NCBI GenBank assembly: GCA_964479005.1
Contig: CAYZJA010000002.1
Coordinates: 64,001 to 128,000, forward strand
Length of the DNA stretch: 64,000 nucleotides
Origin: an uncultured Candidatus Saccharibacteria bacterium
Lineage (GTDB): Bacteria; Patescibacteriota; Minisyncoccia; UBA6257
Reading direction: 5' to 3'
Positions within the stretch are counted from its first letter, which is position 1; every line of letters starts with the position of its first letter. The notes beneath the pieces are model-generated. The model was given only the letters and a program-made list of their open reading frames with translations. It did no database searches and was not told the origin of the DNA. This document shows positions 3,615 to 48,830 of this stretch, piece after piece. Made by a program: the position numbers and the translations under genes.

Positions 3615-4295
3615 TTATTTATTAAATTCTTCTGGAATATTTATGGATTCTCTTTCAAAAGCTTCTGGGTTGTATGAATTGAAAAATAATTCAATCAGTT
3701 CTTTAGTAGTTAATGGTCGTGATTGTAATCCCATTCTAGTTAAATTCGTAATGATATTATTTTGTCTGATTATTAATTGTTGATAATGCTGACGAAAGCT
3801 TTCATCAGAAAGAGGGATTGTGGCGGAAAATGCCTGGTGCCTTAAATTAAGCAATGTTTTATAAGCTTCTAATATTTGGCTTAACGCGGTCTTTGGTTTA
3901 ATCATAATGGGGTCATAGGGCACTATTACATAGAATTTCTTTTTCATAATATTGTTTCCAGTAACAAGTCCTTTAATGAATGTATAATAATCCTCTCCTT
4001 GCAGTTTAAGCAGATTATTTGTTTCTTGACCAATCTTTTCCTGAAGAAAATTTAAATATGATTCAATATTAACGCGCCTAGAATGAGCTACAACTTGCAA
4101 TGGAAAATCTAAGTTATTTATAAGATTACGCCAGCTCATTAACACGGAAGATTGTTCTTCTTCTGATTTTAAATCAAAATTTATACCTGATACTTCTAAA
4201 ACCGAACGGAGCGAACCGTTTTTAAGAATAACTACCCCTTTTCTAATTTGTTGAAGGGAAATGAGTGACTGGCTACTGAAAGTTTCTTTAGGCAT
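3615..4295 (-). CDS. hypothetical protein (T4SS cluster)
   Basis: 226-aa ORF tightly packed between the VirB3-like and VirB4 genes; no recognisable motif. Confidence 0.45.
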   Translation of the reverse strand: MPKETFSSQSLISLQQIRKGVVILKNGSLRSVLEVSGINFDLKSEEEQSSVLMSWRNLINNLDFPLQVVAHSRRVNIESYLNFLQEKIGQETNNLLKLQGEDYYTFIKGLVTGNNIMKKKFYVIVPYDPIMIKPKTALSQILEAYKTLLNLRHQAFSATIPLSDESFRQHYQQLIIRQNNIITNLTRMGLQSRPLTTKELIELFFNSYNPEAFERESINIPEEFNK

Positions 4296-4712
4296 CTATT
4301 TATCTAATATATCGGTTAATTGTTTAAGTGTTTTTTTGTCCAATTGTTTTTTAATCTGTGTTTTTACTGTGGGTTTAGGCTTTTGAGAAACAGAATAAGA
4401 TACTTTCGAAAAAGTTTTTTCTTTTTTCCATAGATAGTATTTTGGAAGCCAAAAATGTCTGATTGCGGCAATGGCGAGTGTATAAATAGGAACACTATGG
4501 ATTTTCCCAAATGCGAGAGAAAAACCGACTGGAGCGAGAATCATTGCTAAAATTAACCAAAGCCATGGTTTTAAAACAGAAAAAAGTAAAAGGAGGAGTC
4601 CTCCAAAAGATAATAAAATCCATAATTGGGTAAAGGTAATCCAACCCATTAATTTTGTTTCCTCTTTTATAAATTGAGGCACTTGATAAGTCATATTTTT
4701 AAGCTTTACCAA
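4296..4712 (-). CDS. VirB3/PrgI-like small membrane protein
   Basis: 138 aa with two adjacent TM helices and a basic tail; sits upstream of VirB4 in the same operon. Confidence 0.45.
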   Translation of the reverse strand: MVKLKNMTYQVPQFIKEETKLMGWITFTQLWILLSFGGLLLLLFSVLKPWLWLILAMILAPVGFSLAFGKIHSVPIYTLAIAAIRHFWLPKYYLWKKEKTFSKVSYSVSQKPKPTVKTQIKKQLDKKTLKQLTDILDK

Positions 4713-5589
4713 AAGGACTTTTTTTCTGATATTTTTTATAAGGAATAGGCTTTTGGATAGTAGGCGTTTCTTCTTTTTTTTCTTTTTCCTTTTTTAATTT
4801 AACGTCAAGGATATATGGTTTTTCTTTTTTAGTTTTCACAAAAACTTCTTCATCCTCAAATTCTTTTCCTTCACCGCTTAAAATTTTAGAGGGCGTTAAT
4901 TCTCCTATTCTTTTCTTTTCTAATATTTCCTTTTCTTCTCTTTTTGCTTCTTTGGGCGATGGGGGTTTTAAAGAGACTTTTTTCATTTCTTCAACAATCT
5001 TCGGTTGGACGGGTTTTCTCTGCATTGCCGCCAATAGCTTTGCTCTGATTTTTTCTTGTTGTTCTGAAGAAATTTTTGGAGCAACAACTTTTTTTAATTC
5101 CTCTATTTTACTAACTGGTTTTTCCACTTTTACTTCAGATGGTTCAGGCAAAGAATATTCAGGAATAATTGGTTCAGAAGGCATTTGTTCTGTAATGGTT
5201 TGTTCAATTTTTTCTTTCGTAATAGGCTTTATCTTTGAGGGCTTTTGCGGAATTCTTTGCTCTAAAGGTTGAGGTTTGTATTGGTTCAATTCTTTCTCAA
5301 ATATTTTAAAGATTTTTCCTTCAATTACTTTGTTAACAATTTGAGCTGCTACTGGAGAAATATTAATTCTTCTTTCTAATTCATTTTTGAATTGATCTTT
5401 AGATAATTGAAAAGATAAAATTTCTGTTATGATGTCCATAACACTAGAAAATTTTTCAGATGAAACTTTGCCCAAATTTAAAGCATCATCTATAATTGCC
5501 CCCATCTTGTCAGAGGCCAAAAAGTCCTGAATACGAAATGGAAGTTTATTGAATGATTTTAAGAATTTGTTTTTGTTCGTTTCTTCCAT
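4699..5589 (-). CDS. Lys/Glu-rich hypothetical protein (T4SS cluster)
   Basis: 296 aa, highly charged; overlaps the next gene by 14 nt, consistent with translational coupling. Confidence 0.45.
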   Translation of the reverse strand: MEETNKNKFLKSFNKLPFRIQDFLASDKMGAIIDDALNLGKVSSEKFSSVMDIITEILSFQLSKDQFKNELERRINISPVAAQIVNKVIEGKIFKIFEKELNQYKPQPLEQRIPQKPSKIKPITKEKIEQTITEQMPSEPIIPEYSLPEPSEVKVEKPVSKIEELKKVVAPKISSEQQEKIRAKLLAAMQRKPVQPKIVEEMKKVSLKPPSPKEAKREEKEILEKKRIGELTPSKILSGEGKEFEDEEVFVKTKKEKPYILDVKLKKEKEKKEETPTIQKPIPYKKYQKKSPFGKA

Positions 5590-5603
5590 ATTCCTCAGTA
5601 AGA

Positions 5604-7820
5604 TTAAAAAGGCAAAAATTCTGCCAAGAAACGATTTTTGTCGTATTTTCTTCTTTTGAGCTCTTGTTTAACAGTTTCTTCATTTCCGTGGATTTTGTCT
5701 TGGACAGATTTTACAAGTTTTTGTGCCCATTTTGTTTGTTTTTCAGTATCATTTGTTGACCTAAGCATAGCAGCAAAATTTCCAGCTGGAAGATTTTTAT
5801 CTAAAAGAGTATAGAAAAATCGATTGGTATGCTGTGGTCCTTTTTCTTCTAATCTTTCAAGAATGTTTTCCCAATTACCTAATTTTATATCATCAGGCGA
5901 AGATTTTAGCAGTTGTTCTGCTATAAGATTAGTGATAACACGATTTTTAGCTTCATCACGAGAGACTCCATGGAATCTTCGCTTCATCTGTTCTATTGCT
6001 TTGTCCATATCTTCAGGTTTTGTAAAGTATTTAGCATGAAGTTCTGGATGAATTTTTTTAATTCCTGAAACATTTAAATTAGGTTGATTTTTAGCTATTT
6101 CGATGAACTTGCTATCTTTTTTATAATCCAGTGATTCTTTTCCTATTAATGTGTTAACACCCAAAGCCATTCTTCCCCCATCTGTCTTATGTGCTTCCAT
6201 ATCAACTCTAATTTGATCTGGGCTTCTTCCTTTATAATCTTCTTCAATTTGTTTTAGTTCAGCTTCGCGAACTTTCCTAGGCTGCCTACCCATCCAAACC
6301 CCTATGTCATGTGTAGGCGCAAATTTGCTGTCTTCTAATTTTTTCTGAGCTTTTCTCCATGGTTCTGAGCTTACGGCTCCTTTTAATGCTTTATGACCAA
6401 GGAAGGCGCCAGCTACTGCTCCAGCCTTAGTAGTTTGTTTCATAACTAATTGAGATGCTGCTCCTCCGCTTTGGAGGGAGAAAATTAATCCTCCTACCAA
6501 AAACATAGAGAATAAAATCATTTGCACTATTGTTGAAGTTACAGAGTCTGCGCCGATTGATATTTGACTCATTCCACTCATTGCTATTATAGCAATATAC
6601 AGTATAAAACTAAAAATAACAGGAAAAAAACACCATTTTATAAATTGTTGCCACCACATTTTCCAATATTTTTCTGTATCTGGGAAAATCCAACAAGCAA
6701 AAACGATAGGGGATAAACCTAGAAGCATAATTAAAATGAATGCTCTGAAAATTATTGTCAAGAAAATAGCAAGCAAAGCAATAACAGCAAAACCTCCAAC
6801 CAATATCATTATAAAGCTGATTATGAAAAAGTTACCAAAACGTAGGCTATAACTCTCTACTTCCGTTGCTGCTGTTGTAGTTGCTGTACCAGTATCTCCA
6901 AGACCTAGAATTTTTGGCGTTTCATATTTATCCTCGCCAAATAAAACAGGAGGATCAAATGTTTTTGTATCCGCTGATTGTTGTTCTTGTTCAATATAAC
7001 TAAAACTTTCCATTATACGAGGGGCAAGGCTTTCATTTTTTTCTTGAGCAATGTTTAGAAAATATACTGAGAGATAATTAGAAGTATCTACTATGATTCC
7101 TGATATAACTAAACTGAAGTTTACTAACAAAGCAACAAGTATTAATTTCCAAAGGATTTGTTTCCAAGCATATTTTTTATAACCAAGAATAGTTGCGATA
7201 GCAATACCTATTAACCCTAAAACTAAAAGTGCGTTAACTAAATTGCGCATCATTTCCCATATTTGTATAACACCATCATTTGTAGCAAATCCGCCATAAG
7301 TTTTCGGATTTAACGCTTTTAATATCCAGCCTATTTCTAAATCTATTAATCCAGCAAACATTTTACCCAAACCTTCAAGTATGGCTTTTGTAGTAACACA
7401 CCACATGTCTGCAATCACTACTTTTATTTCGCATCCAAGCGCATCTAACCCCCAACCATACCTCGCTGCGCATTCCTGCATTCCCTCTTCAAAGTTCTTC
7501 TTACAAAGACCTTCTGGCCTTTCTTCTTGAAGTCTGGTTTTTATTGTCTGTGCTCCATGTCTTATCTCTGTTGTCCCAGGTTCAGGATTTGGAATACAAC
7601 ATTGCTCACTACCAAATCCAGGACAACTCAAAGAAGATTCAATGTAATCTTCTAAATCACTACATTTTGTTGTCTTTTTAACAACACATGTACCTCCTGC
7701 TTCTTCGCAGTCAGACCCAGCTCTTACTTGTGAAATATCAGTTTTTAAAACAGGGCTGATTAGTAATGTAAGAATAACTATGCTAAAAACCCCAATTTTT
7801 AATATATTTTTTGTTTTCAT
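5604..7820 (-). CDS. VirB6/TrbL-like polytopic membrane protein with Cys-rich N-terminal ectodomain and C-terminal soluble domain
   Basis: Signal peptide, about seven TM helices in the central region, and a Thr-rich linker 'TGTATTTAATE'; first gene of the minus-strand T4SS operon. Confidence 0.55.
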   Translation of the reverse strand: MKTKNILKIGVFSIVILTLLISPVLKTDISQVRAGSDCEEAGGTCVVKKTTKCSDLEDYIESSLSCPGFGSEQCCIPNPEPGTTEIRHGAQTIKTRLQEERPEGLCKKNFEEGMQECAARYGWGLDALGCEIKVVIADMWCVTTKAILEGLGKMFAGLIDLEIGWILKALNPKTYGGFATNDGVIQIWEMMRNLVNALLVLGLIGIAIATILGYKKYAWKQILWKLILVALLVNFSLVISGIIVDTSNYLSVYFLNIAQEKNESLAPRIMESFSYIEQEQQSADTKTFDPPVLFGEDKYETPKILGLGDTGTATTTAATEVESYSLRFGNFFIISFIMILVGGFAVIALLAIFLTIIFRAFILIMLLGLSPIVFACWIFPDTEKYWKMWWQQFIKWCFFPVIFSFILYIAIIAMSGMSQISIGADSVTSTIVQMILFSMFLVGGLIFSLQSGGAASQLVMKQTTKAGAVAGAFLGHKALKGAVSSEPWRKAQKKLEDSKFAPTHDIGVWMGRQPRKVREAELKQIEEDYKGRSPDQIRVDMEAHKTDGGRMALGVNTLIGKESLDYKKDSKFIEIAKNQPNLNVSGIKKIHPELHAKYFTKPEDMDKAIEQMKRRFHGVSRDEAKNRVITNLIAEQLLKSSPDDIKLGNWENILERLEEKGPQHTNRFFYTLLDKNLPAGNFAAMLRSTNDTEKQTKWAQKLVKSVQDKIHGNEETVKQELKRRKYDKNRFLAEFLPF

Positions 7821-20876: not shown

Positions 20877-21254
20877 ATGAGGATAGGAAGAATTGGTTCT
20901 TTTGGAGAAGATAAAGCAACAACTTATCTTCAAAATAGCCATTATCAAGTTATACAAAGAAATTTCCAAAGGAAGTGGGGTGAGATTGATATTATTGCAA
21001 AAGATAAAAAAACAAAAGAATTAGTTTTTGTAGAAGTTAAAACAAGACAATTAAATTATGCTTATAGTTTAAACCCAGAAGAGGCATTAACTTCAAAGAA
21101 GGTTCGTCGTTTAAAGCGGGCCTTTTTAAGTTATTTAATTCAATATAATTTAGAAGATAAACCCTGGCGCTTTGATTTTATTGCTATAGAAATAGATAAT
21201 TTTAATTCAGAACCAATAATTCGGCATTATAAAGATATATTTTTACAATTTTAA
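20877..21254 (+). CDS. yraN: YraN-family (UPF0102) endonuclease
   Basis: 'GEIDIIAKD...LVFVEVKTR' core of UPF0102. Confidence 0.7.
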   Translation: MRIGRIGSFGEDKATTYLQNSHYQVIQRNFQRKWGEIDIIAKDKKTKELVFVEVKTRQLNYAYSLNPEEALTSKKVRRLKRAFLSYLIQYNLEDKPWRFDFIAIEIDNFNSEPIIRHYKDIFLQF

Positions 21255-21263: not shown

Positions 21264-21467
21264 ACTTTGTGACACGGTAAACATTGTGTGAAACAAAGTG
21301 TGAAACAATATTAACAAAGCCATTTCCTAATTTTAGACTAAAAATCTGGCTTATTTATGGGCAAACCAAGTAATTTAGGCAGCTTTTATCTCTATTAAGC
21401 CAAAACCCTAATTAAAAATAGTTACTTTGTGACACGGTAAACATTGTGTGAAACAAAGCGTGAAACA
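21264..21467. repeat. two 43-nt direct repeats (ACTTTGTGACACGGTAAACATTGTGTGAAACAAAGYGTGAAACA) 116 bp apart
   Basis: Copies at 21264-21307 and 21424-21467, one mismatch; each contains a GTGTGAAACA / GTGAAACA sub-repeat. They lie immediately 3' of the minus-strand tRNA cluster. Confidence 0.7.
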
Positions 21468-21496: not shown

Positions 21497-21681
21497 TGGA
21501 CTCAGCGAGAATCGAACTCGCGTCTTCGCAACTTGCCCCCACACCATTATATTAGTGGACCCGAGGGGAATCGAACCCCTATCTCGGCAATGCGAATGCC
21601 GTGTAATACCATTGTACTACGGGCCCGTATTTTATGGTGTGGGGGTAAAAATGCGGTATATTACCACTATACTATGAGCCC
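21497..21681 (-). tRNA. split/intron-containing tRNA whose 5' and 3' halves flank a nested tRNA-Ala (anticodon possibly UUU)
   Basis: 5' half GGGCTCA-TAGTATAGTGGTAATATA-CCGCA (21627-21681). 3' half TGCGA-AGAC-GCGAG-TTCGATT-CTCGC-TGAGTCC-A (21497-21545). The halves have perfectly paired acceptor stems and D/T arms near-identical to tRNA-Gly at 12759. The intervening ~130 nt holds the complete tRNA-Ala flanked by complementary CCCCCACACC/GGTGTGGGGG. Confidence 0.45.
21556..21626 (-). tRNA. tRNA-Ala(CGC)
   Basis: Acceptor GGGCCCG/CGGGTCC with G3:U70, loop TTCGCAT, T-arm AGGGG-TTCGATT-CCCCT; no encoded CCA. Confidence 0.8.
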
Positions 21682-21885
21682 ATTAATTAAATTCACATTA
21701 TTTAAAATTATCTAAAATAGCATAGCAAAGATTTTAGATTTAAACAAATTTAAAGAAATAAAAAAGGAAGAAGAGAGGGGAGGTTCTTGTTCTGTCTTTA
21801 CCCTGAGATTTTACAGAGGAAGTACAATTACCCTTTTAGGAGATAAGTATCTCAACCTTGGCTTCTTCCTTATTTATATTCCCCT

Positions 21886-22083
21886 TTATTTAGATAGAAG
21901 ATCATTAAGCATTTCTTTGATAATCTCTTCACCAAATTCTTTCAATTCTGATAGGGGGATATTAGTGGCTTTGGCCATGTTACCTAACTCTCGTTTCATA
22001 TCTGGTCCGAGTCGCATACCTTCACGATTGAGCCGATACTTCAAGAGAATTAAAGCAATTTCACCTTTTCTTTTTTCATCCAT
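21886..22083 (-). CDS. small hypothetical protein (65 aa)
   Basis: ORF preceded by a perfect 9-bp inverted repeat at 22120-22140. Confidence 0.35.
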   Translation of the reverse strand: MDEKRKGEIALILLKYRLNREGMRLGPDMKRELGNMAKATNIPLSELKEFGEEIIKEMLNDLLSK

Positions 22084-22119
22084 GTTTTTAATTTAGTTAA
22101 ATTAATCGATCTTTATAGA

Positions 22120-22140
22120 ATAGAGTTCTTTGAACTCTAT
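22120..22140. promoter_or_regulatory. perfect palindrome ATAGAGTTC-ttt-GAACTCTAT (operator-like)
   Basis: Lies ~40 bp upstream of the minus-strand small ORF start. Confidence 0.4.
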
Positions 22141-22231
22141 TTGTTCTAAGTATACGTCTATTCTATTATTCTGTCAAGGTGGAAAATAATGATGGCTAAG
22201 GTTATAATCTTAGCCATTAACTAATTAATAG

Positions 22232-22302
22232 TCGGGGAACCGGGACTTGAACCCGGACTAAATCCTCCCAAAGGACTCGTGCTACCATTACACTATCCCC
22301 CG
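22232..22302 (-). tRNA. tRNA-Pro(TGG)
   Basis: Acceptor CGGGGGA/TTCCCCG, loop TTTGGGA, T-arm CCGGG-TTCAAGT-CCCGG. Confidence 0.85.
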
Positions 22303-22317
22303 ATATGTTTTTAACAG

Positions 22318-22391
22318 TGCCCTCGGCAGGACTCGAACCTGCACTCTTGTCCTTAGAAGAGACCTGCTTTATCCAATTAAGCTACGAGGGC
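22318..22391 (-). tRNA. tRNA-Arg(TCT)
   Basis: Acceptor GCCCTCG/CGAGGGC, anticodon loop CTTCTAA, T-arm GCAGG-TTCGAGT-CCTGC. Confidence 0.75.
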
Positions 22392-22534
22392 AATTCTTTT
22401 TGAGCTTATCTTCATTTGAGTTGCAGGGATGTCTGGTTTCTATTTTATCATACTTTTACTTGAAATAAAAGTTTTTTTGATTTATAATAAAGTAAAAGTG
22501 GGGCTTATATTTTAAAGATGAGAATAATGTATAT

Positions 22535-23701
22535 ATGCCCAAAGTAAAATGTAGAGTTTGCAAAAAGATATTCTATATCAAATCCAATTGGCTTAAAAGA
22601 GGATGGGGAAAATATTGTTCGAGGAAATGTCAGTACAAATCCCAATTGAAAGGAAAATTTGTGGTTTGCGCCTATTGCGGTAGAAGGGTATATCGATCAC
22701 TTGCTGAATTGCGCAGAAAATCTAAGGCAGGAGTTTATTTTTGTAATTTATCCTGTCATTGCGCTTGGAAAAATAAACAAAGGAAAAGTAAGGGAAGATT
22801 TAAATTACAAAATTTATGGGGACCGTGGTGTAATAGTAGCACTAGGACCTGTGGCGTCCTCGGTACGGATGCAAATTCCGTCGGTCCCCCATTTTTCTTT
22901 CTAAAATTCTTAAAGCCCAAGAAGAAAAAAAATAATCTTTTATTTCTTAAGCGGCCACCAAAGAAAATTCTTTATCATTTTTATTGGAAAAAGAATTATA
23001 CCCAAACAGAGATAGCTAAAATTTTTAATGCCACCCACACTAGCGTGAAAAGATGGTTTAATTATTATAAAATCATGGTGAAGTACCGAACTCTATCTTG
23101 TGGCCATAATCCCAATATTTTAAGAAATTTAAAATTAGGTCGTACAGATAAAGCTATTAGAAAATCGGCAGAAGCAAGAAGAATTTATTCAAAAGAAAAA
23201 CTTATTGAAAAAATAAAAGAATTTGTACAAAAAGAAGAAAGAATTCCTACAAAGAACGAATTTATTAATAATTCCTCTTATCCAGATTATGTCACTTACA
23301 GGCATTATTTTGGCACTTGGAATAATGCCATCAAGACAGCGGGCTACAAGCCAAATGAACAATGGTTTGCCTCAGGACATTTATTTGCTAAAGATGGGCA
23401 CAAATGTAATTCAATTTCAGAAATAATCATTGACGATTGGTTTTTTGAAAATGATATTTCTCATACGAGAGAGTGTTTATACCCAGAAGGACGATATCGC
23501 TGTGATTTTATGGTTGGCAATACTTTTATTGAATTTTTTGGTTTATTTAATGCTTCCATTGTTAACCCAAGTTATATTGAAATCGTTAAAAGAAAAAAAG
23601 AAATATGTAAGAAATTTAATATTGTCCTCATTGAACTCTATGAGAAGGATCTTTATAAATTAGATCAATCCTTGGGAGCAAAGATTGGATTAAAAGTATA
23701 A
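22535..23701 (+). CDS. composite ORF: 2x zinc-ribbon N-terminus, HTH, 'YRHYFGTWNNAIKTAG' motif and a DUF559/Vsr-like PD-(D/E)xK endonuclease-like C-terminus; contains a tRNA-His-like sequence in-frame
   Basis: N-terminal 'CRVCKK..YCSRKC' and 'CAYCGR..CNLSCHC'. HTH 'YTQTEIAKIFNATHTSVKRW'. C-terminal 'SEIII..RYRCDFMV..IEFFG..KKFNIVLIEL' resembles DUF559. A 388-codon open frame is unusual in AT-rich DNA, but codons 95-119 coincide with a GC-rich tRNA-like cloverleaf, so the true start or boundaries are uncertain. Confidence 0.4.
   Translation: MPKVKCRVCKKIFYIKSNWLKRGWGKYCSRKCQYKSQLKGKFVVCAYCGRRVYRSLAELRRKSKAGVYFCNLSCHCAWKNKQRKSKGRFKLQNLWGPWCNSSTRTCGVLGTDANSVGPPFFFLKFLKPKKKKNNLLFLKRPPKKILYHFYWKKNYTQTEIAKIFNATHTSVKRWFNYYKIMVKYRTLSCGHNPNILRNLKLGRTDKAIRKSAEARRIYSKEKLIEKIKEFVQKEERIPTKNEFINNSSYPDYVTYRHYFGTWNNAIKTAGYKPNEQWFASGHLFAKDGHKCNSISEIIIDDWFFENDISHTRECLYPEGRYRCDFMVGNTFIEFFGLFNASIVNPSYIEIVKRKKEICKKFNIVLIELYEKDLYKLDQSLGAKIGLKV
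22818..22889 (+). tRNA. tRNA-His(GTG)-like cloverleaf with non-canonical D- and T-loops
   Basis: G-1:C73 and acceptor GGGACCG/CGGTCCC. Anticodon stem AGGAC/GTCCT with loop CTGTGGC. T-stem ACGGA/TCCGT with loop TGCAAAT (no TTC). D-loop AATAGTA (no GG). Confidence 0.5.
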
Positions 23702-24321: not shown

Positions 24322-26448
24322 TTAATCTTTGCGCATAATCTGATGACGTGTATATGCCAACCAAATATCACGAATTTTACTTTCTACTCTAACTAAAGCA
24401 AGCTGTCCTTTAGGATTAAATTTCAGATAATACCAGATTATTAAAGCTGATATTAAGCTGATAATAAGAGATATTAACAAAGTGTTCAAAGGGCCTGTGC
24501 GGATTGTGGCAGCGCCTGCTACTAATCCATAGGTAATTGAAGCGCTATCTGTTATTTTAGTTTCATTGTCTGCTGTTACTTCAGCAGTATTGGTGTAAGT
24601 CAAATAAGTTCCTGAAGAAAGGCTGATAGCTTGGAATACAATTGCTTTACTAGCTCCTCTATAAATTGTTCCTAACGATAATCCGGTGGTAGCAATCGTA
24701 TCTGATTGTACTATGCCATTAATTTTAGTAGTACCAGGCATATAACTAAGTACAGAAGGCATAATATCTTTTAAGCTTACGTTATAAAGATCTTTATTAT
24801 TGCCAGCAGTTATAGTTAAGTGGAATTCAATTACATCGCCTTCAGTAACACGAATAACTTTTGAATATACTCTATCCCCAGAAGAAAGATTTCTTCCTAA
24901 TTTTGTCAAATTAAGGTTAGTGCTTATAGAAGTTACGTAGATCGTAACAGAGCGTGTGATTTGTCCGCCACTACCATAACAAGTTAAGCGATACGTTGTA
25001 TCAGAATTGGGAGAAGTAGATTCATATCCACTAGTTGATTTACTTCCGCTCCATCCATTAGAAGCAGTACAGTAGTTAGCATTAGTGGAGGTCCAGCGAA
25101 GATATGTAGATTCTCCTTGAGTAATCGTATATTTATCTGCCCAGAGATTAAGTGTAGGGGTATTAGTGTATTGTCCACTGACATTTACACTACAAGAAGT
25201 ACTTGCGCTTCTATTTTGTGAATCATGAACAGTTAAATAAGCTGTGTAATTACCATATGAACTAAAACTTTTTTGACTATATGAAGTACTACCATAAGTT
25301 GCCCCAGACCAATAATATGAATAATTTCCTGAACCACCAGAAATATTACTAGAAAAAGTAACTGTTTGGTCCGTTTGGGCTGGATTAGGGGAGGCAGAAC
25401 AAGAAACAGATAGAGATTGATTTGTTTGTTGACAAGCATTAGCACAATCATTATATGAAATATAAGAGCCAGAAGTTGTTTGATAACATTGATGGGTAGA
25501 ATAATTACAAGAATATCTTGTTTGGGCAATGCAGTTATTTTGGCAATTATTTAAAGAAGTGTAAGGACCAGAAGTTGATTGATAACATTGCCATGTAGAA
25601 GTATTGCATGCATATCTAGTTATGGGTGTTTGGCAAGCATTTGCACAATCATTTAAATTAGCATAAGCCCCATTAGTAGCTACATAACATTGATAAGTAT
25701 TTGTATTACAGGAATATCTTGTTGGTGCAATACAGTTATTTTGACATGTGCTTAAAGAGGTATATTGTCCATTAGAATCTACCACACATTGATAATTAGA
25801 ATTGCAAGTGTATCGAGTTACAGGCGGCTGACAATTAGTTGTGCAATCATTTAAATTAGCATAAGCCCCATTAGTAGCTACATAGCATTGATAAGTATTT
25901 GTATTGCATGAATATCTTGTTGGAGATGGAGGTGCCTGAACATAAACCGTAGCGCTATCAGTGACCGTATCGTAATGGCAGTTACTATTACAAGTGATTG
26001 TAAAAGCAGTAGTTTTAGTAAGATTATTAATAGATTTATTTCCATTAAGAGTTACGCTACCACTCCATTGATAATTATACGGAGAAGCAGATGCAGTACA
26101 GTAATTAGTATTAGAAGAAGTCCAGTGCAAAGTAGCAGAACTATTGTATGGAACAGAAGTCGGGGCAGCAGAAATATTTACTGATGGGGAATGGCAAATA
26201 GTAGTGGTTGTGGTAGGAGGACAGGTTGTTGTAGTGGTGCAAGGAGGTTGTGTAGTTGTAGTTGTGGTAGGGGTAGGATAATGGCAATCAGGATAATGGC
26301 AAGGTGGATAAGTAGTTGTAGTTGGACCCGTAACAATTATAGAAGCATCTACAAAAGATGGACTTATTAATGTAAATAGCAAAATAGCCCCTAAGACAAA
26401 GCTTGGGATTATATATTTTCTAAGAGTTCTATAAAAAAGCTTGTTCAT
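24322..26448 (-). CDS. large secreted Thr/Cys-rich repeat surface protein with C-terminal TM anchor (possible sortase substrate)
   Basis: Signal peptide and poly-Thr linkers (TPTTTTTTQPPCTTTTT). About six tandem copies of a ~34-aa repeat 'RYSCNTNTYQCYVATNGAYANLNDC..NCQ'. C-terminal '..TIRTGPLNTLLISLIISLISALIIWYYLKFNPKG'. Confidence 0.6.
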   Translation of the reverse strand: MNKLFYRTLRKYIIPSFVLGAILLFTLISPSFVDASIIVTGPTTTTYPPCHYPDCHYPTPTTTTTTQPPCTTTTTCPPTTTTTICHSPSVNISAAPTSVPYNSSATLHWTSSNTNYCTASASPYNYQWSGSVTLNGNKSINNLTKTTAFTITCNSNCHYDTVTDSATVYVQAPPSPTRYSCNTNTYQCYVATNGAYANLNDCTTNCQPPVTRYTCNSNYQCVVDSNGQYTSLSTCQNNCIAPTRYSCNTNTYQCYVATNGAYANLNDCANACQTPITRYACNTSTWQCYQSTSGPYTSLNNCQNNCIAQTRYSCNYSTHQCYQTTSGSYISYNDCANACQQTNQSLSVSCSASPNPAQTDQTVTFSSNISGGSGNYSYYWSGATYGSTSYSQKSFSSYGNYTAYLTVHDSQNRSASTSCSVNVSGQYTNTPTLNLWADKYTITQGESTYLRWTSTNANYCTASNGWSGSKSTSGYESTSPNSDTTYRLTCYGSGGQITRSVTIYVTSISTNLNLTKLGRNLSSGDRVYSKVIRVTEGDVIEFHLTITAGNNKDLYNVSLKDIMPSVLSYMPGTTKINGIVQSDTIATTGLSLGTIYRGASKAIVFQAISLSSGTYLTYTNTAEVTADNETKITDSASITYGLVAGAATIRTGPLNTLLISLIISLISALIIWYYLKFNPKGQLALVRVESKIRDIWLAYTRHQIMRKD

Positions 26449-27323: not shown

Positions 27324-27456
27324 AATTCAATTTTCGTTTTGACATATAATATTGTTATTTGTCAGGAGGTGATAAATGTGGTATAATATAAATATAATTA
27401 GAAATTTATTAAAATTAATAGAAATTGATAGAAATTTATTGTAATATATATTAAAT

Positions 27457-28443
27457 ATGAAAATGTTATCTAAAATTAAAAATTGGTTTTTGCCGACTAA
27501 AGAGAATAATTTTCAGCCAAGCGTTTTAAGCGACAGGGCGATTTCTGTTTTTATACTTTTATTTTTATTGGTAAAAGTTATTTTTAGTTTTAATTTAATA
27601 TTAGTAAAACAGTCTTCTCTTTTTGCCGATATTAGCGCTCAAAGAATAATATTTTTAACTAATGAAGTTCGTCAGCAATATGATTTGCCTCTTGTGCAAG
27701 AAGATTCATTATTAAACAAGGCTGCCCAGGAAAAGGCTCAGGATATGTTTAAAAATAAATATTTTAGTCATTATAGCCCAGCTGGAACTTCTCCTTGGCA
27801 TTGGATAGATAAATCTGGATATGATTATTATTATGCTGGGGAAAATTTGGCAATGAATTTTTTAGACACCGAAGAAGTAATAGAAGGATGGCTTAATTCC
27901 CCTTCTCATAGGGAAAATCTTTTGAATAAAGACTATAAAGACATGGGAATTGCTGTTGTTTCAGGAGATTTTAATAGTGAAGGAATTAACAGGATTTTGG
28001 TAGTGCAGATGTTTGCTTCTAAAGCCAAACCATCAATTCCTGTAGCTATGGCTCAAGTTCCTCCAGAGGTTATTCCTTCTGAGGAAATTTTGGAAGAAAA
28101 CAAAGTTTTACCTGAAACAACGGAAACAACAATTCAGACGATTATTGGGGTTGCAGAGGAACAGGCGAAAGATATAACCAGTAAACAGGTTTTAGCGCAA
28201 AAAAATGTATTAGCTCAAATTAATAATAATACAAGAAATCAGGTAGAAACAACGAATAAAGTTATTGCTGGGTTTATAATTCTTTTGGGGGTAATGGCTA
28301 TTGCGGGAATTATTTTGCAGCAGAAAACAATTAGTTTTGGTCTTTCCGAACTCGTTTTAAGAAGCGCAATTATTATTATTTTAGGCGTGTCGTTTACCGC
28401 TTTTCATTTAGAGAATTTAATAGGACACTTGATGATATCTTAA
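27457..28443 (+). CDS. CAP/SCP/PR1-like domain exported protein with C-terminal TM segments
   Basis: N-terminal TM, then 'GENLAMNF..EEVIEGWLNSPSHRENLLNKDYKDMGIAVV' (CAP domain HxxN/GxN motifs), then a C-terminal hydrophobic region. Confidence 0.65.
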   Translation: MKMLSKIKNWFLPTKENNFQPSVLSDRAISVFILLFLLVKVIFSFNLILVKQSSLFADISAQRIIFLTNEVRQQYDLPLVQEDSLLNKAAQEKAQDMFKNKYFSHYSPAGTSPWHWIDKSGYDYYYAGENLAMNFLDTEEVIEGWLNSPSHRENLLNKDYKDMGIAVVSGDFNSEGINRILVVQMFASKAKPSIPVAMAQVPPEVIPSEEILEENKVLPETTETTIQTIIGVAEEQAKDITSKQVLAQKNVLAQINNNTRNQVETTNKVIAGFIILLGVMAIAGIILQQKTISFGLSELVLRSAIIIILGVSFTAFHLENLIGHLMIS

Positions 28444-30435: not shown

Positions 30436-30454
30436 ATATAATATAACAAGAACG

Positions 30455-32644
30455 TTGAAATTGATATGTAACTATTTCAATTATAAAATAGTGAATAAAA
30501 TTTACGAACCACAAAAAACCGAGCAGAAAATTTACCGACTTTGGAAAAAGTCGGGCTATTTTAATCCTGATAAATTACCTAACAAAAAAAGCAAGCCGTT
30601 TTGTATTATAATGCCTCCGCCTAATGCAAATGCCCCTTTGCATATTGGGCATGGAGTTTTTGTCACTTTGCAGGATATAATAATTCGTTATCAGAGAATG
30701 AAAGGAAGAAAGGCTTTATGGTTGCCAGGCACAGATCATGCCGGGTTTGAAACTCAAGTTGTTTTTGAAAAGAAATTAAAAAAAGAAGGAAAATCTGGTT
30801 TAGATATGCCGCGCGATGAATTTTATAAAGCGGTTTGGGAATATACACAAAAAAATAGAGAAGTTGTTAAAAAACAATTAGAACAGTTAGGCGCTTCATG
30901 TGATTGGTCTCGTGAAAAATTTACTCTTGATAGAGATATTCAAAAAATCGTTTATCAAACATTAGAGCGGTTATGGAAGGATAAATTGCTTTATCGCGGC
31001 AAAAGAATAGTTAATTATTGCCCCAAACATAAAACAGCCTTTTCTGATTTGGAAGTCAAGTATAAAGAAGAGAAAGGAAGATTATATTTTGTGGAATATA
31101 GATGTAGAGACAAAAATGAATCAATCACTGTTGCCACTACAAGGCCAGAAACTATTCCTGGCGATGTTGCCATTGCTGTTAATTCTAATGATAGAAGATA
31201 CAAAGAGTTAATTGGGGAAAGCGTGATAGAGCCTATTACCAAAAGGGAAATTCCTATTATTAGTGATGAGGCTGTGGATATTGATTTTGGCACTGGTGCA
31301 TTAAAAATTACGCCAGCCCATGATTCTTTAGATTTTGAAATTGGGCAAAGGCATAATTTAGAAACAAAAGAGACATTAGATTTTGATGGGTATTTCAATG
31401 AATTAGCCGGTCCTTTAGCAGGATTAAATATCGCAGATGCGAGGGAAAAATCGGTTGATATTTTAAGAAAAAACAGGGCATTAGTTAAAGAAGATGATTA
31501 TGTTCATGAGATTGGCCATTGTTATAAATGCGAGACAGTTATAGAGCCAATGTTGATGAATCAATGGTTTATAGCTGTAACAAAGTCATTGCCTAAGACA
31601 AAAGAATCTTTACGTGATTTAGCTGTTGACGCAGTAAAGAATAAAAAAATAAAGATTATACCAAAACATTTTGAAAAAGTCTTTTTCCATTGGATGAAGA
31701 ACATAAAAGATTGGAATATTTCGCGCCAAATTCGTTGGGGAATTCCAATCCCTGCTTATTATTGTGATGACTGCGGAAAATCTTTTATTAAAGCGAAAGG
31801 AAATGTATCAAATTGTATTTATTGCAAAAGCGGAAATATTAAAAGCGATTCAGACGTATTAGATACTTGGTTTTCTTCAGGGCAGTGGCCGTTTGCCACT
31901 CTTTTAACATCTAAAAATAAAAAGGATTTTAAAACTTTTTACCCAACTGATGTAATGGAAACAGGCTGGGATATTTTATTTTTTTGGGTGGCAAGGATGA
32001 TAATGTTTGGAATTTATTGCACAGGAAAGATTCCTTTTAAGGCTGTATATTTGCATGGATTAGTAAGGGATAAAGATCGCCAAAAAATGTCTAAATCCAA
32101 AGGTAATGTAATTGACCCTTTGGCAATTGCTAAAATTTATGGAACAGACGCTGTAAGGATGGCTTTAATAATTGGCAATACTGCTGGCAGCGATATTATT
32201 ATTTCCGAAGAAAAAATCAAGGGATATCGTAATTTTGCAAATAAAATTTGGAATGCATCCCGCTTTGTTTTGATGAATTTAAAAAATTTTGATGGGAAAA
32301 AATCTGCTTTAACTACGCAAGACAAGAAGCTTTTAAAAAATTTGGAAATTATAAAGAAAAAAATGACTCACCATTTGGATAATTTTCATTTTTCTTTGGC
32401 AGGAGAATTAATTTATCATTATTTTTGGCATACTTTTGCTGACAAGATAATTGAAGAGATGAAAAATAGAATTAAAGATAATAAAGATAAAAAACAGGCA
32501 CAGTATGTACTTTACAAGATTCTTATTGATTGTTTGAAGATGCTTCATCCATTTATGCCATTTGTGACAGAAGAAATATGGCAGAAAATCCCTCGATATA
32601 AGGACAAAAGAGCAGATTTATTAATAATAGAAAAATGGCTTTAA
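30455..32644 (+). CDS. valS: valyl-tRNA synthetase (short form lacking C-terminal coiled coil)
   Basis: 'PPPNANAPLHIGHG' (HIGH), 'WLPGTDHAGFETQ' and 'KMSKSKGNVIDP'. The start codon is uncertain (TTG at 30455, or downstream). Confidence 0.8.
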   Translation: MKLICNYFNYKIVNKIYEPQKTEQKIYRLWKKSGYFNPDKLPNKKSKPFCIIMPPPNANAPLHIGHGVFVTLQDIIIRYQRMKGRKALWLPGTDHAGFETQVVFEKKLKKEGKSGLDMPRDEFYKAVWEYTQKNREVVKKQLEQLGASCDWSREKFTLDRDIQKIVYQTLERLWKDKLLYRGKRIVNYCPKHKTAFSDLEVKYKEEKGRLYFVEYRCRDKNESITVATTRPETIPGDVAIAVNSNDRRYKELIGESVIEPITKREIPIISDEAVDIDFGTGALKITPAHDSLDFEIGQRHNLETKETLDFDGYFNELAGPLAGLNIADAREKSVDILRKNRALVKEDDYVHEIGHCYKCETVIEPMLMNQWFIAVTKSLPKTKESLRDLAVDAVKNKKIKIIPKHFEKVFFHWMKNIKDWNISRQIRWGIPIPAYYCDDCGKSFIKAKGNVSNCIYCKSGNIKSDSDVLDTWFSSGQWPFATLLTSKNKKDFKTFYPTDVMETGWDILFFWVARMIMFGIYCTGKIPFKAVYLHGLVRDKDRQKMSKSKGNVIDPLAIAKIYGTDAVRMALIIGNTAGSDIIISEEKIKGYRNFANKIWNASRFVLMNLKNFDGKKSALTTQDKKLLKNLEIIKKKMTHHLDNFHFSLAGELIYHYFWHTFADKIIEEMKNRIKDNKDKKQAQYVLYKILIDCLKMLHPFMPFVTEEIWQKIPRYKDKRADLLIIEKWL

Positions 32645-33813: not shown

Positions 33814-33898
33814 GCGGACGTGGTGAAATTGGAAAACACATAGGACCTAGAATCCTATGCCGAAAGGCTTGTGGGTTCGAGTCCCACCGTCCGCACCA
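33814..33898 (+). tRNA. tRNA-Leu(TAG), class II, CCA encoded
   Basis: Acceptor GCGGACG/CGTCCGC, anticodon stem ATAGGA/TCCTAT with loop CCTAGAA, long variable arm. Preceded by a 17-nt partial duplicate of its 5' end (33797-33813). Confidence 0.7.
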
Positions 33899-33970
33899 GT
33901 TCAATAAAATTAAAAACCCCGTTTTAACGGGGTTTTTAAATGATAGCCGAAAAATTACCAAACAATTTTT

Positions 33971-34312
33971 TTAAAAGGTAACTGTTTTTCCGAGAAATGT
34001 ACCTACTACATACATTAATCCTTTAGCTAATAATGCTACACCTATACCTATTAAAGCATGTACAAGACCACTTAATGCTTTTTTTGCTTTTTCGTCATCT
34101 CCTGCAGCAGTGATATAGAGCCACCCTGAATAGACAATGTAAAGTGCTGCTATAAAGAGCACAATATTAAAAAACCACTGTACAGTTTTTTCTAGAAGAG
34201 TCCAAATGTCAACTCCGGTTGCTGATGGAAGATCTTGTACAGTATAGGCGCCAAAAACAGGGATAGCTATCAACATTGTCATGGCTAAAATAGGCAAAAT
34301 AATTTTTTTCAT
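33971..34312 (-). CDS. VirB2/TrbC-like pilin (stand-alone pilin module)
   Basis: 113 aa: signal peptide, 'IVLFIAALYIVYSGWLYITAAGDDEKAKKALSGLVHALIGIGVALLAKG', two hydrophobic helices. Confidence 0.55.
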   Translation of the reverse strand: MKKIILPILAMTMLIAIPVFGAYTVQDLPSATGVDIWTLLEKTVQWFFNIVLFIAALYIVYSGWLYITAAGDDEKAKKALSGLVHALIGIGVALLAKGLMYVVGTFLGKTVTF

Positions 34313-34370
34313 TTTTTTATTTGATTAAAATTAGTTTCATATTCGACCTTTTTTCTTTAATGTAAATTAT

Positions 34371-34470
34371 AACAACCTTTCGCTAAAACTCAAGAACGTT
34401 GAATTAAAACTAGTAAGTTTTAATATTAACAACCTTTCGCTAAAACTCAAGAACGTTTCAATCAAAATGT
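34371..34470 (+). repeat. tandem copies (one full ~57 nt, one partial) of the repeat AACAACCTTTCGCTAAAACTCAAGAACGTTGAATTAAAACTAGTAAGTTTTAATAT
   Basis: Full copy at 34371-34427, second copy starting 34428; a third copy in inverted orientation lies at 46243-46300, and the core CAAGAACGTTGAA occurs at 30447-30459. Confidence 0.7.
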
Positions 34471-34588
34471 ATCATTTCAATTATTTAATATATATTGAAA
34501 TATATATTAAAATTAAAATAAAAGTATTTTAATTATAGCAAATTGCAATCGTGATATCAACATAAATTTTAATTTTCAAAAGGAGAAT

Positions 34589-44511: not shown

Positions 44512-46242
44512 CTATATCTCTTTTAATGCTTGTATTCCTAATATTTCTAATCCTTTTTCAAGGACACTAGTGATTGTCTTTAGAAGAACAAGTTGGGCGT
44601 TTTGTCTGGCTTTATTTTTTTCTTTTAACACAGGTATAGCTTCATAATATTTGTTAGTTAAATCCGCCAATGATAAAAGGTAAGTAGCTAAATTGTTTGA
44701 TGAATATTTTTCAGCGCTGGTTTGAATTATTTCCGGAAATTCAGATAATTTTTTAATGAGATAAATTTCCAATTCATTGGTTAATAATTTGCAATCATAT
44801 TTTCCGATTTTTTTGGCTTTAGTAAGAATTTTATTTATACGGGCATAGGCATATTGAAGATAAACACTGGTATCTCCTGAAAAATCAAGCATTTTTTTCC
44901 AATCAAAAACAATATCAGAAGCGCGAAATGATTTTAAATCATTAAATTTTAAAGCCCCAACTGCAATTGTTTGGGCTAATTCTTTTTGTTTTGGCAGTGA
45001 CCATTGGGATTTTTTCTCTTTAATTATTTCCAATGATTTTTCAATTATCTGATTAATAACCTGTTCAAGAGGGATAATTTCTCCTTCTCTAGTAGAGAAC
45101 TTTTTCTTTTTTTCTGACAATATCAAGCCAAATTTAATATGAACCAATTCGGTTTTTTCTTTTGGAAAAATAATTTTTGATAGAGTAAAAAGTTGTTTAA
45201 AATGAACGTCTTGTTCATTGCCAACAACATAAAGAATTTTTGCAGGATGGTATTTTTTGAAACGGTATTTTAGCAAAGCCAGATCGCGAGTAAGATATAA
45301 GCTTGCTTTGTCTGATTTTTGAATTAAGGCAGAAGGAAGATTAAATTTTTCTAAAGGAACAATAAGCGCTCCTTTGCTTTTTTGCGCCAAATTCTTTTTT
45401 TTCAAAAGATTCACTAATGGAATCAAATCTTTTTCAAGAAAGCTCTCGCCTAAAAGAAGGTCAAACTTAATATCCAAAAGTTTATATATTTTTTGAAAAT
45501 CTTTAATTGATTCTTTTTTAAACCACAGCCATAATTCTTTGTTTTCTTTATCACCTTTTTCTAATTTTTTGAATTCTTCCTGTCCTAATTTTTCTAAATC
45601 CGGATTATTTTTTATCTCCCCATGGAATTTTATATATAAAGCAAGAAGAGTAGGAATAGGATTTTTTTCTATTTCTTTTTTCCGCCCCCAAAGCTTATAA
45701 GCGGCAATTAATTTTCCAAATTGAGTACCCCAATCGCCAAGATAATTCCAGCGAATCACTTTATAGCCCAATGTCTCATATAAATTAGCCAATGTTTCAC
45801 CAATGATTGTGGAACGTAAATGCCCAATATGCATTGGTTTGGCAATATTAGGTGAGGAATAATCAATTATTATCGTTTTGTTTTTACCTATTTTTGAAAG
45901 TCCAAATTTTGTTTTTTGTTTATATATGGTTTCTAATTCTTTTTGGATAAATTCTTTATTAACGAAAAAATTAATAAAACCATTTTTAGCTAATTCTACT
46001 TTTGTTATTTCTTTTGGCAATTTTTGCTGCATCTCGTCTATTAAAATTTGGGCTATTTCAAAAGGAGATTTTTTAACATCTTTGCTAATGGAAAAGGCTA
46101 TAGTTGTACTGTAGTCTCCATATTGCTCGTTTTTTGGTATTTCTAACGAAACATCAGGAATAGAAGAAAGAGGCCATTTATTTTTTATGGCTGTTTTTTC
46201 GCATGATTTTTGAACGAAGTTTTTGATTGTTTGTTTTAGCAT
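44512..46242 (-). CDS. argS: arginyl-tRNA synthetase
   Basis: 'SSPNIAKPMHIGHLRSTIIGETLANLYE' (HIGH) and the class I ArgS anticodon-binding C-terminus. Confidence 0.85.
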   Translation of the reverse strand: MLKQTIKNFVQKSCEKTAIKNKWPLSSIPDVSLEIPKNEQYGDYSTTIAFSISKDVKKSPFEIAQILIDEMQQKLPKEITKVELAKNGFINFFVNKEFIQKELETIYKQKTKFGLSKIGKNKTIIIDYSSPNIAKPMHIGHLRSTIIGETLANLYETLGYKVIRWNYLGDWGTQFGKLIAAYKLWGRKKEIEKNPIPTLLALYIKFHGEIKNNPDLEKLGQEEFKKLEKGDKENKELWLWFKKESIKDFQKIYKLLDIKFDLLLGESFLEKDLIPLVNLLKKKNLAQKSKGALIVPLEKFNLPSALIQKSDKASLYLTRDLALLKYRFKKYHPAKILYVVGNEQDVHFKQLFTLSKIIFPKEKTELVHIKFGLILSEKKKKFSTREGEIIPLEQVINQIIEKSLEIIKEKKSQWSLPKQKELAQTIAVGALKFNDLKSFRASDIVFDWKKMLDFSGDTSVYLQYAYARINKILTKAKKIGKYDCKLLTNELEIYLIKKLSEFPEIIQTSAEKYSSNNLATYLLSLADLTNKYYEAIPVLKEKNKARQNAQLVLLKTITSVLEKGLEILGIQALKEI

Positions 46243-46300
46243 ATTTATATTGAAACTTACTAGTTTTAATTCAACGTTCTTGAACGAAGCGAGAGGTTGT
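46243..46300 (-). repeat. third copy of the ~57-nt repeat, filling the whole uppP-argS intergenic space
   Basis: Minus strand reads 'AACAACCTCTCGCTTCGTTCAAGAACGTTGAATTAAAACTAGTAAGTTTCAATATAAAT-ATG(argS)'; contains TTGAAT-N17-(C)AATAT promoter-like hexamers. Confidence 0.65.
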
Positions 46301-47058
46301 TATATTAAGATTACCATGCTTAATATTATTAAATAAAGAGAAAACCAAAAGTATTTTCCTCTTTTCAATATCTTTTCTAAAATTTTTAAACTGATAATTC
46401 CTACAAAGAATGAAATTAACATCCCTAGTCCGCCTAATAAATAATTATTTTCTCCTTGTTGCATCAATGCAGGCAGTTGTAAAATAACGGCTCCAAAAAT
46501 AACAGGGAGAGCCAAAAGAAAAGAAAATTTGTAGGCAATTTCCGGCTTTAATTTTCTTAATAACCCTGCAGAAATAGTAAATCCAGAACGAGAAATGCCA
46601 GGGAAAAGGGCAACTGCTTGGGCAATTCCTATTATTAAAGCATCAAGCCATGATATTGTATCTTTTTGTGCTTTTGAATATTTGGTTGAGAAAAGAAATA
46701 AGGCAGTAATTAAAAAAGATAAACCGATAAATTTCAAAGACATAAAGCTTTGCTCTATCTTTGTTTGGAAGAAAAAACCAAAAATTGCAGCTGGAATTGT
46801 TCCAATAATAATAAGTTTAATTAATTGCCAATTTTTATTATGTAATATTTCTTTAATTTCTTGCCAAAATACTGCCAATATTGCTCCTAATGTTCCAAAA
46901 TGGAGAAGGGCGCTAAAAGCTATTGAAGCTTTTGGCAAATTCCAGAGAATTTGCAGTACCGCTAAATGACCAGAACTGGAAATTGGCAAAAACTCAGTTA
47001 TGCCTTGAGTAATAGCTAAAATAATTGTTTGAAATATATTCATATTGTTTGTCGGCAC
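46300..47058 (-). CDS. uppP: undecaprenyl-diphosphatase (BacA/UppP)
   Basis: 'ITEFLPISSSGHL' and C-terminal 'PGISRSG' motifs. Confidence 0.85.
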   Translation of the reverse strand: MPTNNMNIFQTIILAITQGITEFLPISSSGHLAVLQILWNLPKASIAFSALLHFGTLGAILAVFWQEIKEILHNKNWQLIKLIIIGTIPAAIFGFFFQTKIEQSFMSLKFIGLSFLITALFLFSTKYSKAQKDTISWLDALIIGIAQAVALFPGISRSGFTISAGLLRKLKPEIAYKFSFLLALPVIFGAVILQLPALMQQGENNYLLGGLGMLISFFVGIISLKILEKILKRGKYFWFSLYLIILSMVILI

Positions 47059-48696: not shown

Positions 48697-48830
48697 ATTT
48701 ATGACTTTTTTACTATAATTAAAATACTTTTATTTTAATTTTTAATATATTTTAACGTATATTAAATAATAAACAATTAGTATAGTACGTTCTTCTAATC
48801 ATAAAGCAAAACAACTTTTTTTTCAATCAT

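Follow-up and report, generated by a model that had tools for sequence, protein, structure and literature searches.

What is the repeat that fills the space between uppP and argS, and does it serve the genes that it precedes? The question arises in a 64,000-nucleotide stretch of DNA (here called the window), in which the same repeat recurs beside the pilin genes and near the start of valS. An earlier note on this DNA proposed a promoter or leader shared by aminoacyl-tRNA synthetase (aaRS) genes, and named a small dispersed, MITE-like repeat as the alternative. At about 33% GC the window is AT-rich, and its small housekeeping operons are of the sort typical of CPR bacteria, as are its T4SS-type pilins and numerous tRNA genes. 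Over 6.3 kb it is 100% identical to the JGI contig Ga0111033_1136287 (158,735 nt), whereas an exact look-up of its ArgRS found no entry. The named closest homologues of its ArgRS and of MurC are labelled Paceibacterota, Pacebacteria or Patescibacteria. We agree with the gene identities given previously (BacA/UppP, ArgRS, ValRS and the T4SS-type pilins).

Copies of the unit within the window

The repeat is genuine. A 55-nt unit between the uppP stop and the argS start (46247-46301, minus strand) and a 57-nt unit at the pilin site (34371-34427, plus strand) are nearly identical and have in common the 28-mer TTGAATTAAAACTAGTAAGTTTYAATAT (34399-34426 on the plus strand and 46247-46274 on the minus strand), for which 0 occurrences are expected (100 shuffles). 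The 14-mer that starts the head of the unit, AACAACCTYTCGCT, occurs exactly three times in the window, as does the 13-mer CAAGAACGTTGAA (30447 and 34391 on the plus strand, 46270 on the minus strand). The argS copy consists of a head, AACAACCTCTCGCTTCGTTCAAGAACGTTG (46272-46301), and a hairpin at about 46250-46269, both on the minus strand. As first described, it occupies the whole uppP-argS gap, with 4 nt from its end to the argS ATG (46240-46242). Its final 5 nt, AATAT (46247-46251), equal the 5 nt immediately before the head (46302-46306), and its first two A's double as the last two bases of the uppP TAA stop codon (46300-46302).

The pilin site was reported as a tandem pair of one full and one partial copy. 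The first copy is indeed full, with a 9-bp hairpin (34403-34424) rather than the 6-bp hairpin previously given for the repeat, and the second is a complete 57-nt unit as well (34428-34484, plus strand) with the head of unit 1. Its hairpin variant, TTCAATCAAAATGTATCATTTCAATTAT, is partly decayed, differs from that of unit 1 and resembles the tail of the unit at locus L036. A third unit-sized module of 52 nt (34485-34536, plus strand) completes a block of 166 nt; it has a palindromic AT-only head, TTAATATATATTGAAATATATATT, unlike the family to which the other units belong (family 1), and a type-A hairpin tail, AAAATTAAAATAAAAGTATTTTAATTAT. At valS, the 13-nt core noted earlier is exact at 30447 on the plus strand, and more than the core is present: a decayed family-1 unit occupies 30445-30484 (plus strand) of the tsaD-valS spacer, reading AACAA followed by GAACGTTG and a hairpin ending in TTTCAATTAT, with ~17 nt of the head deleted. 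In a relative (L009), the unit at the orthologous tsaD-valS site is intact. The valS start is likely the GTG at 30491, and the mechanically listed TTG at 30455 falls within the element.

We further note a third unit type, in which the head TTAATATAYRTTRAAATATATT is joined to a type-A tail, at 48709-48773 (minus strand), 34485-34536 (plus strand) and 27423-27462. The first of these is a solo copy between the start of a CCA-adding-enzyme gene (48696) and tRNA-Arg (48831). The third-type hairpin at 34509-34542 is complementary (97%) to 48709-48742, and similar modules come after family-1 units in L016 and L032.

A family of hairpin-bearing units in Patescibacteria

Two exact-pattern scans for the bipartite head, one of species-representative genomes and one of JGI metagenomes, matched 6 and 39 DNA stretches, respectively, giving 45 from other Patescibacteria assemblies; the collection is biased to intact heads because the pattern had to match exactly. 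Family units are ~51-58 nt long and contain no ORF. The head of ~30 nt reads (AT)AACAACCTYTCGCT, a variable 3-6 nt, and TCAAGAACGTTG, and is followed in every copy by a hairpin. No terminal inverted repeats are present in the unit, the 5' end AACAACCTTT not being complementary to the 3' end TTTTAATTAT. Family-1 units occur singly or as head-to-tail arrays, in which 2-3 units repeat every 51-58 nt. Their hairpins include an AT-rich type A (TTGAAATTAAAATAAGTATATTTTAATTAT), the variant found in the window (TTGAATTAAAACTAGTAAGTTTTAATAT), a type B (TTGTTTTCTCACTTCGTTCGAAAAT) and GC-richer forms (L001, L002, L012 and L019), and differing types can occur within one array, as in L048.

Folded alone, the hairpins of the window copies are weak (-1.8 to -7.4 kcal/mol), so the structural claim rests on comparative data and not on energy. 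In an alignment of 19 distinct units, stem positions pair in 88% of cells, versus 39-51% when the partner columns are slid, and three stem pairs show changes on both sides (20 cells). None of 500 shuffles reaches the covariation score. The stem begins with GTTG, the last four bases of the head, and is closed by TAAC; 16 of the 19 units have a fixed G.T wobble here, so that full pairing is possible on only one strand. In a sister family (family 2), ATAAGAACCTGTTCGCTTCGCTCCAGAACCTTG..GAAATAAG, GTTG...TAAC is replaced by CTTG...TAAG, a compensatory change of the closing pair from G-C to C-G. Family 2 forms arrays of 3-4 units with a period of 51 nt in L051 (3331-3516 and 13070-13252), and also occurs in L020 (9139-9171), L022 (522-554), L026 (3002-3031) and L039. 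No family-2 copy is found within the window, to whose ArgRS that of L051 is 81% identical. A 235-aa 'gene' called over the four-unit array of L051 (3319-4026) is probably spurious.

The head itself was considered as an RNA structure and rejected, as its outer CAACCTT/AACGTTG stem lacks covariation and is broken by the Y variant and by family 2. Covariation within the head is limited to a 3-bp CTT/AAG stem (CTG/CAG in family 2), which is too little for a claim.

Intact, identical heads are found in genomes with only about 53-65% amino-acid identity, as would follow from spread of the family between lineages or from tight constraint on the copies that propagate. The seeming invariance is in part an artefact of the exact-pattern search. 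In L048, a locus picked solely by ArgRS similarity, none of five units fits the exact head pattern: two have a 1-nt insertion, one has a substitution and two are strongly diverged. Heads therefore do decay, as has also happened in the valS copy of the window.

The family of ~55-base elements is apparently undescribed. Searches of the window, the pilin region and six loci against Rfam at gathering and permissive thresholds returned tRNAs only, and a full-text literature search by head sequence, and on repeats or promoters in CPR bacteria, found no description of the element. The head pattern had no match in viral contigs, and a two-unit query against phage and plasmid records gave chance-level matches only.

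Units are present or absent at orthologous sites

Comparisons of filled and empty sites back the MITE-like alternative of the earlier note and extend it. The units are shown to be discrete recent insertions, present or absent between close relatives, and not a conserved leader; the direction of change, insertion as opposed to precise deletion, is polarized by parsimony only. The uppP-argS site is filled only in the window and in L060, whose ArgRS is 99% identical. It is empty in six relatives, L061, L062, L048, L049, L050 and L051, with ArgRS identities of 93%, 90%, 88%, 86%, 85% and 81%, and in four of these six the uppP-argS distance is 3-18 nt. Where L050 reads ATCTTAATATAATATATG, the window reads ATCTTAATAT, then 55 nt, then AAATATG.

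The 166-nt pilin block with its three units is missing in L053 and L058, which are 91-98% identical to the window. Their empty site reads TTGATA-17-TATAAT directly followed by TTACATTAAAG. The block sits exactly behind this pilin promoter TATAAT and ends in GGTTGTTATAAT; the TATAAT hexamer is therefore duplicated.

The same pattern recurs elsewhere. L048 has three units between the lactamase gene and gyrA, a diverged unit between gyrA and the MTase gene and another between the MTase and SBP genes, where the spacers in the window are 19, 25 and -4 nt, respectively. The site between tRNA-Gly and a dksA-like gene is filled in L012 and L039 and empty in the window; in L039 the dksA-like gene retains its own TTGACT-17-TAAGAT promoter downstream of the unit. 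Array length also differs, with one unit in L024 versus three in the orthologous L026. One insertion lies within a coding sequence: in murC of L036/L043, a 57-nt unit preserves the reading frame and adds 19 residues (NLSLRSRTFQLKCNHFNYD) between RRF..ILY and KKIAVVDDYAHHP. This unit is missing from all 24 of the 24 aligned homologues, down to 81% identity, and the empty-site DNA, CTCTAT/AATAAG, can be read in L046 and L047.

Target site and flanking direct repeats

The insertion target is AT-rich, wwTAT^A(A). Nearly all copies have ..TAT, ..AAT or ..GAT as the last bases of their left flank, and the empty sites place the insertion after TAT. At five empty/filled pairs we find direct repeats of 4-7 nt that vary in length and overlap the hairpin arm. 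The flanking repeat is the unit's own 3' end, as in AATAT(AA), ATTATA, TTAT and AAAAT. The composite 166-nt pilin block is bounded by a single repeat pair, of which the left copy is the 6-nt ATTATA at 34366-34371 (TATAAT on the minus strand). In the GC-richer subfamilies the left flank covaries with the hairpin arm, with GCGGGAT versus GAGGGAT in L001 and GTGATAGT versus ATGGTAGT in L019.

These features account for where copies lie. At no fewer than six (at least six) independent sites, the stop codon of the upstream gene is the TAA at the unit start. Copies are often found on stop codons and -10 boxes because the target holds TAA and, on the opposite strand, TATAAT, and the insertions are tolerated because the stop codon or the -10 box is duplicated. 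Since each insertion recreates the target, new units land beside old ones, giving head-to-tail arrays that sometimes mix subfamilies.

Neighboring genes, orientation and promoter-like hexamers

After duplicates and orthologues are merged, the units occupy ~33 sites, next to unrelated housekeeping genes that include rpsQ, rpsD, rpmJ, rpsP, rpsR, prfB, frr, recR, dnaB, dnaK, gyrB, pilT, mraY, tsaE, malic enzyme, murC and others. Only three of the ~33 sites touch an aaRS gene (argS, valS and alaS), and the alaS unit is downstream of alaS. Relative to both flanking genes, units are co-oriented at ~15 sites and antisense at ~10, with two convergent, two divergent and one intragenic. For 10 of the 12 left genes on the opposite strand, the gene start and the unit are 17-76 nt apart. 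Replication orientation of the copies could not be read from GC skew, as the skew tracks gene strand and is uninformative.

The promoter proposed earlier, TTGAAT-N17-yAATAT, does not hold up: the spacing is 16, the hexamers fail a simple sigma-70 scan, and the scan calls no promoter at the argS copy. Sigma-70-like hexamer pairs in this AT-rich DNA are at chance density (22 versus 20.1 expected, and 4 versus 3.3 expected). The ATG of rpmJ in L015 and that of frr in L044 directly adjoin or overlap the hairpin end, and a -10 at that position could therefore not serve rpmJ or frr. Among other candidates, ECF-type, sigma-54 and sigma-32 promoters, cre, the ARG box, HAIR, dif and parS gave no fit in a by-eye comparison.

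On the antisense strand, TTGAGY in the head is separated by 15-16 nt from a TG-TATNNN junction. At the pilin site the native promoter-like site, TTGATA-17-TATAAT with TG, lies at 34532-34560 on the minus strand, and its -10 (34532-34537) is the right copy of the direct repeat. A hybrid promoter-like site is formed by TTGAGT (34388-34393, minus strand) and TATAAT (34366-34371) with a spacing of 16 and TG, and faces the gene for a 113-aa pilin; its TATAAT stands exactly where the native -10 stood relative to the pilin gene. It is plausible from this arrangement that the hybrid -35/-10 may replace the displaced pilin promoter and make the insertion tolerable. Such rebuilding would hold for only part of the copies, since about half are in the opposite orientation.

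Probable mobility of the units and competing explanations

We consider it highly probable that the units are a non-autonomous family of mobile repeats, ~51-58 nt long, of Paceibacteria-like CPR bacteria. Pairing on one strand only and compensatory stem changes suggest that the unit would move as a folded single strand. It would be recombined into targets matching its 3' end by an enzyme encoded elsewhere, for which an IS200/IS605-RAYT-type HUH/Y1 transposase or a tyrosine recombinase is a candidate. Effects on neighboring genes, such as a hairpin right before argS or the hybrid pilin -35/-10, would then be by-products. The scanned ORFs of the window yielded no transposase, integrase or HUH domain, and no autonomous parent copy was seen.

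Some features sit poorly with a mobile element. Variable repeats of 4-7 nt that overlap a hairpin arm fit no classical staggered-cut duplication, and the same repeats also mismatch the duplication-free mode of IS200/IS605. Each unit has only one hairpin. Site-specific recombination via a short common core would explain direct repeats that equal the element end. Overall, the features are intermediate among IS200/IS605-RAYT transposition, short-core site-specific recombination and microhomology recombination, with a full fit to none. The identity of heads at ~53-65% AAI could reflect a host function rather than a constraint of mobility.

An alternative that we regard as unlikely does without a dedicated transposase. 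Host recombination or template switching at short repeats (microhomology), possibly aided by natural transformation, would spread the units in a process akin to the expansion and contraction of mosaic intergenic repeats. The short and variable flanking repeats, which always equal the unit 3' end, are consistent with such a process, as are head-to-tail arrays of variable copy number, the composite pilin block with its one repeat pair and the lack of a transposase gene among the ORFs scanned in the window. However, the same precise boundaries at many unlinked sites are hard to obtain by microhomology alone. In addition, the subfamilies are homogeneous, as master-copy amplification predicts, and the compensatory stem changes suggest that a folded intermediate is recognized as such.

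A new mode of mobility can also be envisaged, albeit at similarly low probability, in which a single strand of ~55 nt finds its insertion site through a match to, or pairing with, its own hairpin arm and is handled by a host recombinase common to Paceibacteria. Such a recombinase would explain why a 30-nt head is identical at only ~55% protein identity. If this mode were real, matching by the hairpin arm would amount to nucleic-acid-guided target choice that shifts as the arm mutates, and the units might also be exploited to rebuild promoters on -10 boxes.

A further explanation, which we think rather improbable, reverses the roles and takes the unit as a selected cis-acting module, either a site bound by a conserved CPR protein or a portable cassette of terminator and promoter, with mobility secondary. 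The identical head in distantly related genomes points in this direction. So do the antisense TTGAGY and TG-TATAAT-like junction, which would rebuild a promoter at the very place where the native -10 was parted from its pilin gene, the starts of opposite-strand left genes close to the unit, and the stop codon that is often directly before the hairpin. Against it, about half of the copies are wrongly oriented for any single strand-specific role, the unit is dispensable in close relatives at all sites tested, and heads decay in the sample picked without the pattern (L048). The dksA-like gene of L039 has its own promoter-like site downstream of the unit, and the hairpins lack U-tails, with no terminator-like sites called at units.

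The reading as a shared promoter or leader regulating aaRS genes is rejected as very improbable: two of the three window sites do lie 5' of argS and valS, L009 retains an intact unit upstream of valS and TTGAAT-16-yAATAT can be read on the element strand, but six relatives have no unit upstream of argS, few sites touch an aaRS gene (one of them from downstream), units occur in both orientations and, once, within the coding sequence of murC, the sigma-70 scan does not pick up the hexamers, start codons in L015 and L044 abut or overlap the supposed -10, and Rfam gives no match to a T-box or other family. The T-box was also considered in its own right and discarded, with no covariance-model match in the window, the pilin region or six loci and a 55-nt unit that is far too short.

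Comparison with known elements

On present evidence the element, whose anatomy is unusual, is of a known general kind, that of the REP/BIME-, PATE-, RPE- and MIRU-like miniature repeats. REP/BIME elements (REPINs) of Enterobacteria and Pseudomonas are ORF-less hairpin units of ~35-60 nt that are mobilized in trans by RAYTs. They are mostly extragenic, often just past stop codons, and clustered, forming mosaics with other short motifs. A REP consists largely of a palindrome whose 5' GTAG is conserved, and successive REPs in a cluster usually face opposite ways. The CPR units are likewise hairpin-bearing, mostly extragenic and clustered, but conserve a ~30-nt non-palindromic head, form strictly head-to-tail arrays and are flanked by direct repeats. 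These units have no GTAG-type tetranucleotide 5' of the palindrome and no alternating orientation in their arrays, and no RAYT gene is among the scanned ORFs of the window.

Miniature elements of the IS200/IS605 group (PATEs) have no terminal inverted repeats, a strand-specific hairpin and a short AT-rich target. The target of IS606 is TTAT, and IS200/IS605-derived elements keep their target, making tandem insertion possible. The CPR units are similar in lacking inverted repeats and in being inserted 3' of a short specific target. PATEs have hairpins at both ends and cause no duplication, whereas the CPR unit has a single 3' hairpin and a 4-7-nt repeat that overlaps the hairpin arm. No left-flank hairpin is present at the solo copies in murC and between uppP and argS.

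Rickettsia palindromic elements (RPEs) are small selfish repeats, 100-150 bp long, palindromic throughout and frequently intragenic, and occur in a reduced genome. Like an RPE, a CPR unit can sit in frame within a protein gene (murC, 19 residues), although only one intragenic case was seen. The Correia elements of Neisseria are 100-155 bp long, with 26-bp inverted repeats and a fixed TA duplication. The CPR units resemble them in their AT-rich target, in inserting between operon genes and in forming outward promoter hexamers from their ends and flanks.

Mycobacterial interspersed repetitive units (MIRUs) are intergenic units of 46-58 bp in variable tandem arrays within operons, where they overlap the upstream stop and abut the downstream start, features that they share with the CPR units. 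MIRUs are oriented with the operon and have no hairpin, and to our knowledge they are not reported as precise single-unit insertions into new sites. The orientation of CPR units, in contrast, does not follow the operon (~15 sense versus ~10 antisense sites). Classical MITEs moved by DDE cut-and-paste are also small, non-coding, multi-copy and polymorphic for presence or absence. They have terminal inverted repeats, which the CPR units lack, and a target duplication of fixed length, where the direct repeats of the CPR units vary over 4-7 nt and overlap the hairpin arm.

Integron attC sites, in which R'' (RYYYAAC) at the 5' end pairs with R' (GTTRRRY) at the 3' end and which lie in cassettes served by IntI, were rejected, as the hairpin polarity of the unit is opposite (5' GTTG ... 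TAAC 3') and its context is one of core housekeeping neighbors. Guide arrays of the TIGR or CRISPR-like kind have conserved repeats between variable spacers and lie beside a tas or cas gene (preprint). A TIGR-Tas array was rejected for the units, since both unit halves repeat unchanged in arrays and no tas or cas gene is found within the window.

Implications for CPR genomes and their annotation

CPR/Patescibacteria genomes of ~1 Mb are regarded as streamlined and poor in mobile DNA. Active 55-nt insertions that split operons, land on -10 boxes and stop codons and enter murC would represent ongoing small-scale turnover in these genomes, and the unusual anatomy, with a conserved single-stranded head, no inverted repeats and direct repeats equal to a hairpin arm, bears on the mechanism of mobilization. 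The units also have practical effects: they lengthen ORFs or create spurious calls (the valS TTG, a tsaD in L009 that runs into its unit and the 235-aa gene of L051), they can pass for regulatory motifs, as happened in the earlier note, and they break short-read metagenome assemblies.

Contig ends lie within units in L055, L056, L057, L059, L054, L035, L013, L014 and L017; four Logan contigs, for example, begin at ACGTTCTTGAG.., 87 nt upstream of the pilin gene. The GenBank MAG contig JABUBO010002135.1 (L035/L054) is 98.8% identical to window positions 33870-34458 over 591 nt, and this matching part takes in the pilin gene, flanked by the last part of tRNA-Leu and by units that reach the contig end. 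The remainder of this contig has ~55% AAI to the window and is not syntenic with it, the switch falling within tRNA-Leu. Either the assembly is a chimera, joined at a conserved tRNA, or the pilin segment was transferred recently.

Other observations

Another insertion polymorphism in this clade is found in the gyrA of L050 (15540-19304), a relative with 85% ArgRS identity. This gyrA contains a LAGLIDADG-endonuclease intein and encodes 1254 aa; in L048 and the window the length is 824-842 aa. Beside infB, the same locus has a free-standing LAGLIDADG-like ORF (6350-7384). In the window, an ORF of 388 aa (22535-23701, plus strand) has an HNH_repeat domain associated with homing endonucleases and overlaps tRNA-His (22819-22890); this ORF at the edge of a tRNA cluster may be a mobile or homing-type gene.

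The tRNA cluster (21555-22890) adjoins a 44-nt direct repeat, ACTTTGTGACACGGTAAACATTGTGTGAAACAAAGYGTGAAACA, at 21264-21307 and 21424-21467, downstream of a UPF0102/YraN gene (20877-21254). The two copies are 98% identical, 160 nt apart and unrelated to the mobile unit. A 708-aa ORF with DUF11 (24322-26448, minus strand) contains internal DNA repeats of ~100-200 nt with 60-85% identity (25399-25923) and is probably a repetitive surface protein. A T4SS-like cluster (1-7820, minus strand) encodes a T4SS pilin, a VirB4/TraG-type ATPase (1821-3611), a PrgI-like protein, a TrbL/VirB6-like protein (5604-7820) and several ORFs with no Pfam match.

Finally, the 593-aa ArgRS entries (P0125, P0127, P0142, P0143, P0145 and that of L049, 9740-11521) are 17 residues longer than the rest. 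They look like over-extended start calls rather than real N-terminal extensions, because the called ArgRS start of L049 overlaps the end of uppP.
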